From positions 1 through 35,425 of the forward strand of contig DRBZ01000006.1 in assembly GCA_011043895.1 (NCBI GenBank): a stretch of DNA of 35,425 bases, read 5' to 3'. The first letter of the stretch is position 1. The number at the start of each line of letters is the position of its first letter. A program made the translations under genes and the position numbers. The stretch is from Candidatus Cloacimonadota bacterium (lineage in GTDB: Bacteria > Cloacimonadota > Cloacimonadia > JGIOTU-2). The notes beneath the pieces are model-generated. The model was not told the origin of the DNA. It worked only from the letters and a program-made list of their open reading frames with translations, and ran no database searches. Below are positions 12,951-13,958 of the stretch, piece after piece.

Positions 12951-13958
12951 ATGAGTGTCGTTGAAATGAAAAATTTACTCGAGGCTGGTGTACACTTTGG
13001 TCATCAGACCCGACGCTGGAATCCAAAGATGAAAAAATATATTTTCATCAAGAGGAACGGCATACACATCATTGATCTCAAACAAACACTTGAAGCTATT
13101 AATCAAGCTTATTATTTTTTTCGAGAACTTGCGGCAAAGGGCAAGAACATTCTGTTTGTTGGTACCAAAAAGCAGGTGTCCGAAGGCATCGAATCCGCTG
13201 CCCAGAAATGTGAAGAATTCTATATCAGTCATCGCTGGTATGGAGGGACATTGACCAATCTGAATACCATTAGAAAGAGTATTGCAAAACTCGATGAGTT
13301 CGAAGAACTAAAAGAGAGTGGAGAGATCAATAAATTTACCAAACTTGAGATACTTCGTATGCAACGTAAATATGATAAAATCCTCAGTGCGCTGGGTGGA
13401 ATTCGAGAAATGGATCAAATTCCATCTGCACTTTTCATTGCAGACATTGTGCATGAGAGAAATGCGGTAAACGAAGCTAAAAAACTCGGTATTCCTATTG
13501 TCGCAATTGTAGATACCAATGGAGATCCTGATGGTATCGATTACATCATTCCAGGCAATGATGATGCAATGAAATCAGTCAATCTCATCTGTGACATTAT
13601 GGCAAATGCAGTAATCGAAGGTAAGAGAATTGCAGCAGAAGGTGGAGATATCTCTGATTTTGAATCTGTCGATAAAGACCAAGAAGTTATCGAAGAAGAA
13701 GCAGAAGCCATAGCTGATGAAGTAGCAGCACCAGAAGAAGAAGTGGAAGTTGAAGAAGCGCTTGAAGAAGTTGTGGAGGTAGAACCAGAAGCGAAAACGA
13801 AAAAGACGGAAGAGAAGAAAGAGGATAAAAAAGAAGAAAAAACTCAAAAGAAGGAAGAGGAACCTGTGGAAAAACGTTTCGAATGCCCCGATTGTGGCAA
13901 AACCTTCTCATCAAAACGTGGACTAAAGATTCATCTTGGTCTTGTCCATCAAAAATAA
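12951..13958 (+). CDS. rpsB: 30S ribosomal protein S2 with acidic/charged C-terminal extension and terminal C2H2 zinc finger
   Basis: [53 protein letters not shown] at 12951 after GGAGG; ends [26 protein letters not shown]. Confidence 0.97.

Follow-up and report, generated by a model that had tools for sequence, protein, structure and literature searches.

The window, a stretch of 35,425 nucleotides (nt) from a Candidatus (Ca.) Cloacimonadota bacterium, encodes a ribosomal protein uS2 that ends in a classical C2H2 zinc finger. The gene, rpsB, lies on the forward strand at 12951–13958, stop codon included, and specifies 335 amino acids (aa) that match the bacterial S2 family at 326.1 bits (TIGR01011 rpsB_bact, cut-off 76.3). 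An earlier reading, made from the letters alone and called here the sequence-only reading, had described an unbroken frame from S2 to the finger, and this description holds: the frame runs from the ATG at 12951 to the TAA at 13956–13958 with no stop between. The fusion is genuine and has a single origin, in an order-level lineage of Cloacimonadota (Ca. Celaenobacter and related families), and the finger is kept by purifying selection as strong as that on the S2 core.

The finger and its tether

The finger comprises residues 310–333 (13878–13949, forward strand) and scores 26.4 bits against PF00096 (cut-off 25.2), or 30.3 bits in a six-frame search of the genome. Its position and exact pattern, F-x-C-x2-C-x3-F-x5-L-x2-H-x4-H, are those first proposed. 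The four ligands, C312 (13884–13886), C315 (13893–13895), H328 (13932–13934) and H333 (13947–13949), are spaced as C312-x2-C315-x12-H328-x4-H333, and F310, F319 and L325 form the hydrophobic core. The finger is single and ends two residues short of the S2 C terminus. Its N-terminal half (xKxFxCPxCGKxFS) is very near the Krüppel-type consensus; the helix half is distinctive. All 36 aligned homologues match PF00096 at E ≤ 0.01, which puts the pattern well outside what chance would give; some relatives lack a precomputed PF00096 label and are borderline.

When the last 33 residues were modelled alone with AlphaFold2 (18 sequences), the predicted local distance difference test (pLDDT) score was 85.7, and the model has strands at model residues 8–9 and 16–17 and a helix at 20–29, a β-β-α arrangement. 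All matches listed by Foldseek against the Protein Data Bank (PDB) are classical C2H2 fingers (TMq about 0.8, root mean square deviation 0.4–1.3 Å), with E-values that are weak (best 0.065) owing to the tiny size of the domain. A profile of the finger matched 72 C2H2 proteins among the PDB sequences. By its Pfam score and predicted fold, and by these matches, the tail is a bona fide classical C2H2 module, predicted to bind zinc, in agreement with its first identification.

The S2 core domain (residues 9–224; 12975–13622, forward strand) matches PF00318 Ribosomal_S2 with an E-value of 5e-93 and is modelled at a pLDDT of mostly 80–96. Core and finger are joined by a linker of 83 aa (residues 227–309), composed of an acidic part (residues 230–281; 13638–13793, forward strand; pLDDT about 30 and no secondary structure) followed by a part that is, by its sequence, rich in lysine and glutamate (residues 282–309; 13794–13877, forward strand). 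In the AlphaFold2 model of the full protein (36 sequences), residues 235–306 have a pLDDT below 50 and no secondary structure, so the long, flexible, acidic-then-charged tether described at the outset is also the one predicted here. The first half of the linker carries a net charge of −5 to −16 in all 40 fused proteins.

Distribution of the fusion

A profile of the finger, run over 232 Cloacimonadota genomes, found it in 20, with one full copy in each that in every case closes the S2 frame. Family f1 has it in 18 of its 20 genomes in addition to the window's own genome, and family f2 in its one genome; it was not found in the one genome of family f3 or in any of the 209 genomes of 14 further families. 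The two f1 genomes without a finger (G006 and G018) are also without any S2 match; rpsB was therefore simply not assembled there. The finger lineage consists of two families of one order, the genus Ca. Celaenobacter and its kin. Genomes of the same genus include Ca. Celaenobacter antarcticus and MAG213-F140, the latter assigned to Ca. Celaenobacter in a passage of PMC12590816.

Thirty S2 loci were read out. All 18 from f1 and f2, with full or nearly full frames, end in the finger, and all 12 S2 frames from the other families (f3–f8) end in acidic or mixed low-complexity tails without it; the S2 frames at the relatives' loci contain no stops. A search of 5.8 billion proteins listed the 120 best S2 homologues; the finger is present in the first 40 of these and absent from the remaining 80.

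The tails of S2 proteins without the finger were also classified. Among 78 such homologues, 35 have lysine-rich repeat tails (91–203 aa, net charge +9 to +64), 30 have acidic tails and 13 lie in between; the tails are hypervariable.

The finger appears to be confined to S2. A 5-mer word search with residues 296–335 against 5.8 billion proteins returned, at similar length, only S2 proteins of the clade (25 matches from 26 candidates), and among shorter proteins two matches only, both of them S2 fragments cut at contig ends. A pattern scan of 185,579 species, one genome each, gave 24 pattern matches, 13 of which were confirmed, all 13 in Cloacimonadota records. No free-standing copy, donor gene or second host protein of the finger was found in the phylum scan, the word search or the species pattern scan; these searches covered sequences like this finger, and S2 fusions with a divergent finger in other phyla lie outside their scope. 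The search of the window's own genome likewise gave no C2H2 match above the Pfam cut-off other than the S2 finger. Two broader queries were less telling. The finger profile gave 14,384 matches at E ≤ 0.001 among 1.84 billion representatives, and all 150 listed are long multi-finger proteins with additive scores, uninformative on single-finger fusions; an ESM Atlas query with the whole S2 protein returned a plain S2 cluster only.

One further match to the finger profile was recorded in the phylum scan (G014:C46:343-384, locus L052; E 4.9e-4). It spans profile positions 7–20 within a 293-aa frame and is probably just a CxxC knuckle.

Selection on the finger

The ratio of nonsynonymous to synonymous substitution rates (dN/dS) was determined from a codon alignment of 17 genes. 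Within the genus the finger has a value of 0.035, the S2 core 0.060 and the linker 0.311; over all 17 genes the values are 0.085, 0.070 and 0.431, respectively. The proportion of synonymous differences (pS) is 0.50 for the finger and 0.51 for the core, and most finger codons occur in several synonymous forms. The constraint therefore acts at the level of the protein rather than of the DNA or of the ribosome-binding site or start of the downstream gene, tsf. The sequence-only reading had asked for a conserved finger beside a variable linker in relatives, and this is what the alignments contain.

None of the four ligand residues varies in the alignments of 13, 17, 18 and 36 sequences. The invariant residues of the finger are C312, C315, K317, S321, K322, R323, G324, K326, I327, H328, G330, L331 and H333, of which K317, K322, K326 and G330 are conserved at 90% or more, instead of fully, in the larger alignment of 36 sequences. 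Variation is limited to the β-hairpin, and the helix (S-K-R-G-L-K-I-H-x-G-L-V-H) is almost frozen across the clade. The net charge of the finger is +2 to +6 in all 40 proteins.

These data bear on the possibility that the fusion is an artefact of assembly or annotation, or a functionless neutral relic. The source is a metagenome-assembled genome that is 65% complete, and no RNA run is listed with the locus. However, the same fusion occurs in 20 genomes and 40 protein clusters from several sources, its frames have no stops, and the low dN/dS of the finger is found at saturating synonymous change. Artefact or relic is thus extremely improbable and effectively refuted. The junction of core, linker and finger is also spanned, with 0 differences and 0 gaps, by contigs of two public runs from two studies; both runs are possible sources of the window DNA, so they give no independent support. 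An apparent insertion (a G put in at 13843) was discarded, as it comes from an unrelated contig that matches only partially, over 32 nt, in low-complexity sequence.

Gene context

The window's genome (G000, 65% complete) has a single S2 match, which lies in rpsB-tsf context, and the view that this is the main rpsB copy can be put more strongly, as it is the sole copy found there. Exactly one S2 match is present in 39 of 41 related genomes; none of the 38 relatives with a match has a second. Zinc-responsive switching between paralogues, as in a zinc-dependent C+/C− pair of ribosomal proteins, is unlikely, as no genome was found with more than one rpsB match or more than one finger.

All genes of the cluster are on the forward strand. 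Upstream of rpsB lie rplM (12018–12449; Pfam Ribosomal_L13) and, directly adjacent, rpsI (12466–12852; Pfam Ribosomal_S9), with 98 nt between rpsI and rpsB. A Shine-Dalgarno-like GGAGG, read off the sequence at 12940–12944, stands 6 nt 5′ of the rpsB start. As originally reported, tsf begins 15 nt past the rpsB stop with a ribosome-binding site of its own: GGAG is read at 13965–13968 and the gene, encoding a short, 197-aa EF-Ts, at 13974–14567 (Pfam EF_TS, E 1.6e-40). It is followed by a UMP-kinase-like gene (pyrH) and then by frr.

A further candidate is an extraribosomal function, in which the finger would help free S2 in recognizing its own rplM-rpsI-rpsB-tsf mRNA, giving autogenous repression, or another RNA or DNA operator. 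There is precedent in Escherichia coli, where uS2 together with bS1 represses its own rpsB-tsf mRNA according to a passage of PMC10931766, and a specific operator could account for the invariant recognition helix. Set against this, an Rfam scan of 11000–16500 at E ≤ 1 found no rpsB leader and no structured family, only two sub-threshold chance matches, the rpsI-rpsB gap is only 98 nt, and specificity is rarely achieved by a single finger. We regard such a regulator as improbable.

Some features of the neighbourhood are recorded here for completeness. The EF-Ts of the window is a short form that aligns to Pfam EF_TS at profile positions 73–204 only. A 216-aa open reading frame (ORF) on the reverse strand (11160–11810), just upstream of the ribosomal protein cluster, matches no Pfam family at E ≤ 1e-5. 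Further downstream, 16107–18731 encodes a protein of 874 aa that combines an N-terminal TMEM260-like protein O-mannosyltransferase domain with TPR repeats at its C terminus.

Possible function on the 30S subunit

The function that we propose, as possible rather than probable, is that of a module on a flexible tether at the solvent side of the 30S subunit, which would bind a conserved partner, most likely RNA, and help mRNA capture or 30S stabilization. In such a mechanism, the cell's only uS2 would be made as one three-part polypeptide of S2 core, tether and finger. The tether, of about 80–100 residues, is predicted to be intrinsically disordered; it always begins acidic, and its sequence can vary freely. 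On this leash the finger could explore a wide space near the mRNA exit and platform of the 30S subunit, reaching most of the subunit, and could dock onto one conserved macromolecular ligand, either an mRNA leader or a ribosomal RNA surface. It would then act alongside bS1 as a built-in helper for mRNA capture or 30S stabilization.

The location of uS2 is described in part of PMC10931766: the protein sits on the 30S solvent side between head and body, contacts h26 and h35–h37, docks bS1 and adjoins the chamber of the Shine-Dalgarno helix. It also lies at the contact surfaces of the 100S dimer and, as proposed, of RNA polymerase (from a passage of PMC5620080).

One conserved ligand, rather than many variable ones, is suggested because the helix is near-frozen. 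RNA is favoured because the K/R residues K317, K322, R323 and K326 are invariant and the finger is always net positive, and also because 35 of the 78 Cloacimonadota S2 homologues without a finger have long poly-lysine tails. The latter suggests that an S2-anchored, polyanion-binding tail may be a recurring theme in the phylum. We infer that an RNA ligand is somewhat more likely than a protein.

A number of observations weigh against this proposal. The finger helix has S, G and I at positions −1, +3 and +6, the canonical base-contacting positions; under the zinc-finger recognition code, these residues are poor at hydrogen bonding. The exposed conserved hydrophobic residues I327, L331 and V332 would fit a protein interface just as well, and the acidic tether should repel RNA. 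The net charge of the second half of the linker ranges from −18 to +15 over the 40 fused proteins and is thus not conserved; because the charge of the K/E-rich stretch varies in this way among relatives, a model of a basic region acting together with the finger appears weaker than the window sequence alone implies. In the full-length AlphaFold2 model (36 sequences), the pLDDT of the finger is only 55–67. Finally, no RNA run is listed with the locus, and the one RNA run that was compared gave no contig on this stretch of DNA.

Several of these features fit a protein–protein adaptor instead, in which the finger would recruit or clamp a conserved protein on the 30S subunit, such as bS1, RNA polymerase, a hibernation or assembly factor or another ribosomal protein. 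The entire helix is invariant, including I327, L331, V332, G324 and G330, whereas the surface of the β-hairpin varies; S, G and I stand at −1, +3 and +6; and uS2 lies at the bS1-docking, 100S-dimer and RNA polymerase contact surfaces named above (parts of PMC10931766 and PMC5620080). The consistently basic character of the finger argues against such an adaptor. The adaptor is somewhat unlikely, yet nearly as good a reading as RNA.

A third type of ligand would be double-stranded DNA, the finger tethering ribosomes to the nucleoid or to transcribed DNA and thereby coupling transcription and translation. The nearest PDB relatives of the finger, in both sequence and fold, are DNA-binding fingers, and histone-H1-like lysine-rich tails are present on other Cloacimonadota S2 proteins. 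However, the residues at the base-contact positions are again S, G and I, the finger is single and has no conserved flanking basic region, and the tether is acidic. DNA binding is therefore, in our view, quite improbable.

Search for a correlate in the translation machinery

Three comparisons of the translation machinery count further against the proposed RNA-binding module. First, bS1 is full-length in the finger clade and is present inside and outside it, bS21 is found in 40 of 41 genomes and the long form of HPF in 39 of 41; none of the three differs between groups, apart from the short S1 paralogue described below. Among bS1, bS21 and HPF, the comparison of clade and outgroups thus identifies no lost function for the finger to replace.

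Second, 16S rRNA offers no docking site in the form of an insertion specific to the clade. The comparison used 15 of 34 small-subunit rRNA matches, one per genome, from 9 finger-clade and 6 outgroup genomes, second copies, partial matches and four extra f4 genomes having been dropped. The alignment has one 1-nt deletion column and 28 scattered diagnostic columns out of 1637, as phylogeny predicts. The anti-Shine-Dalgarno tail CCTCC is canonical in finger clade and outgroups.

Third, there is no clear loss of Shine-Dalgarno use. In a crude count, which scored GGAG or GAGG at −18 to −5 from the first ATG in ORFs of 200 aa or more, the motif precedes 284 of 849 ORFs in the window's own genome (0.33), compared with 57 of 108 (0.53) and 42 of 124 (0.34) in the outgroup genomes G026 and G023 and with 0.03–0.07 in control windows. 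The own genome is therefore not below one of the two outgroup genomes.

A difference between the groups was found in a paralogue of S1. A short second S1 (about 500–525 aa) is present in all 18 outgroup genomes (f4–f8), exemplified by that of G026 (L093:372-1883, 503 aa; NCBIfam NF005208, 398 bits, cut-off 368), and none was found in the 22 genomes of the finger-bearing order, f3 included. This pattern could speak for a protein adaptor. Since f3 has neither finger nor short S1, the two features are imperfectly complementary, and the pattern, which reflects roughly a single evolutionary event, is no more than a lead. A more far-reaching idea builds on the same pattern: the eukaryote-type finger leashed to uS2 would be a ribosome-resident recruitment module for specific mRNAs, or would couple the 30S subunit to RNA polymerase or the nucleoid, partly replacing the short second S1, and might derive from an archaeal or eukaryotic finger gene. 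We consider this unlikely.

Two observations on S1 itself are added here. The S1 open frames are long (553–935 aa) throughout the class. In one genome of the finger clade, the open frame of rpsA (G015, L058:1042-3180) includes about 150 lysine-rich residues ahead of the first S1 domain.

Comparison with known systems

The core of the window protein resembles bacterial uS2 (TIGR01011 and PF00318) in matching at full length, in being single-copy and in its rpsB-tsf-pyrH-frr context. It differs in the addition of a tail of about 110 residues with a folded C2H2 finger, whereas a typical S2 ends soon after the core or in a low-complexity tail. A curated precedent for S2 with an extra C-terminal module is NCBIfam NF051451 ('30S ribosomal protein S2, sunset domain variant'), with which the core and part of the tail align. 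The C-terminal module of the window protein is a different one, and membership was rejected on scores of 280.7 bits for the window S2 and 259.9–295.5 bits for five other Cloacimonadota S2 proteins, relative to a cut-off of 710. A literature search found no paper on the 'sunset domain'.

The finger shares with Krüppel-type C2H2 fingers (PF00096) the ligand spacing, the hydrophobic core, the xKxFxCxxCGKxFS knuckle and the predicted β-β-α fold. Unlike them, it is single, with no tandem array or TGEKP linker, has the H-x4-H spacing and S, G and I at the base contacts, and is located on a bacterial ribosomal protein. Small C2H2 proteins of archaea and of archaeal viruses are also single classical fingers in prokaryotes, but those are free-standing, and the S2 finger was never found so; the ESM Atlas feature neighbours of the finger include archaeal clusters of 40–74 aa, which we take as a lead only. 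Ros and MucR are bacterial proteins with a single Cys2His2 zinc domain; in Ros the spacing is different and the globular fold larger than in the classical finger. The Pfam search at E ≤ 1 found 13 families, none of them ROS_MUCR, and this assignment was rejected. Classical C2H2 motifs are almost exclusively eukaryotic, according to a passage of PMC3541406.

The closest functional analogy may be that of bS1, which works from a uS2 anchor and reaches into the solvent by the mRNA exit (part of PMC10931766). In contrast to the finger, bS1 is a separate protein with OB-fold S1 domains, and it is retained in the finger clade. Disordered C-terminal tails on core components of cellular machines are known from two further proteins, both unrelated to the fusion in sequence. 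Eukaryotic uS2 (RPSA) has an acidic, disordered C-terminal extension with no finger, and SecA has a flexible linker leading to a C-terminal zinc-binding domain that binds partners and does not have the C2H2 fold. By analogy, the finger may act as a small bS1 equivalent built into S2, or in the manner of terminal zinc modules on a tether, like that of SecA.

In a separate observation, a 150-aa bL21 cluster, commonest in Gemmatimonadota, aligned structurally to the finger in the ESM Atlas (37 residues, TM by query 0.74). As a lead only, it may be another bacterial ribosomal protein with a small C-terminal finger-like module.

Significance

Full-text literature searches, which did not extend to supplementary domain tables, found no account of S2, or of any ribosomal protein from Cloacimonadota, with a C2H2 finger. 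In the text of PMC8542988, which describes Ca. Celaenobacter, the terms 'ribosomal protein' and 'zinc finger' occur 0 times each. Public records name the fused proteins '30S ribosomal protein S2', though precomputed Pfam labels show both domains. The suggestion that the architecture is undescribed thus stands within the full-text literature searched.

The fusion is a lineage-specific extension of a ribosomal protein. Such extensions are a main route of ribosome diversification; to our knowledge, few folded domains have been added to bacterial core ribosomal proteins, and bacteria seldom have classical C2H2 fingers. In this case an entire order of uncultured anaerobes has retained a finger on a ribosomal protein that is essential and single-copy, under a constraint as tight as that on the S2 core. 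The finger is a clean molecular marker for this Cloacimonadota lineage, and its maintenance under core-like constraint implies a real function at the mRNA-exit side of the small subunit.

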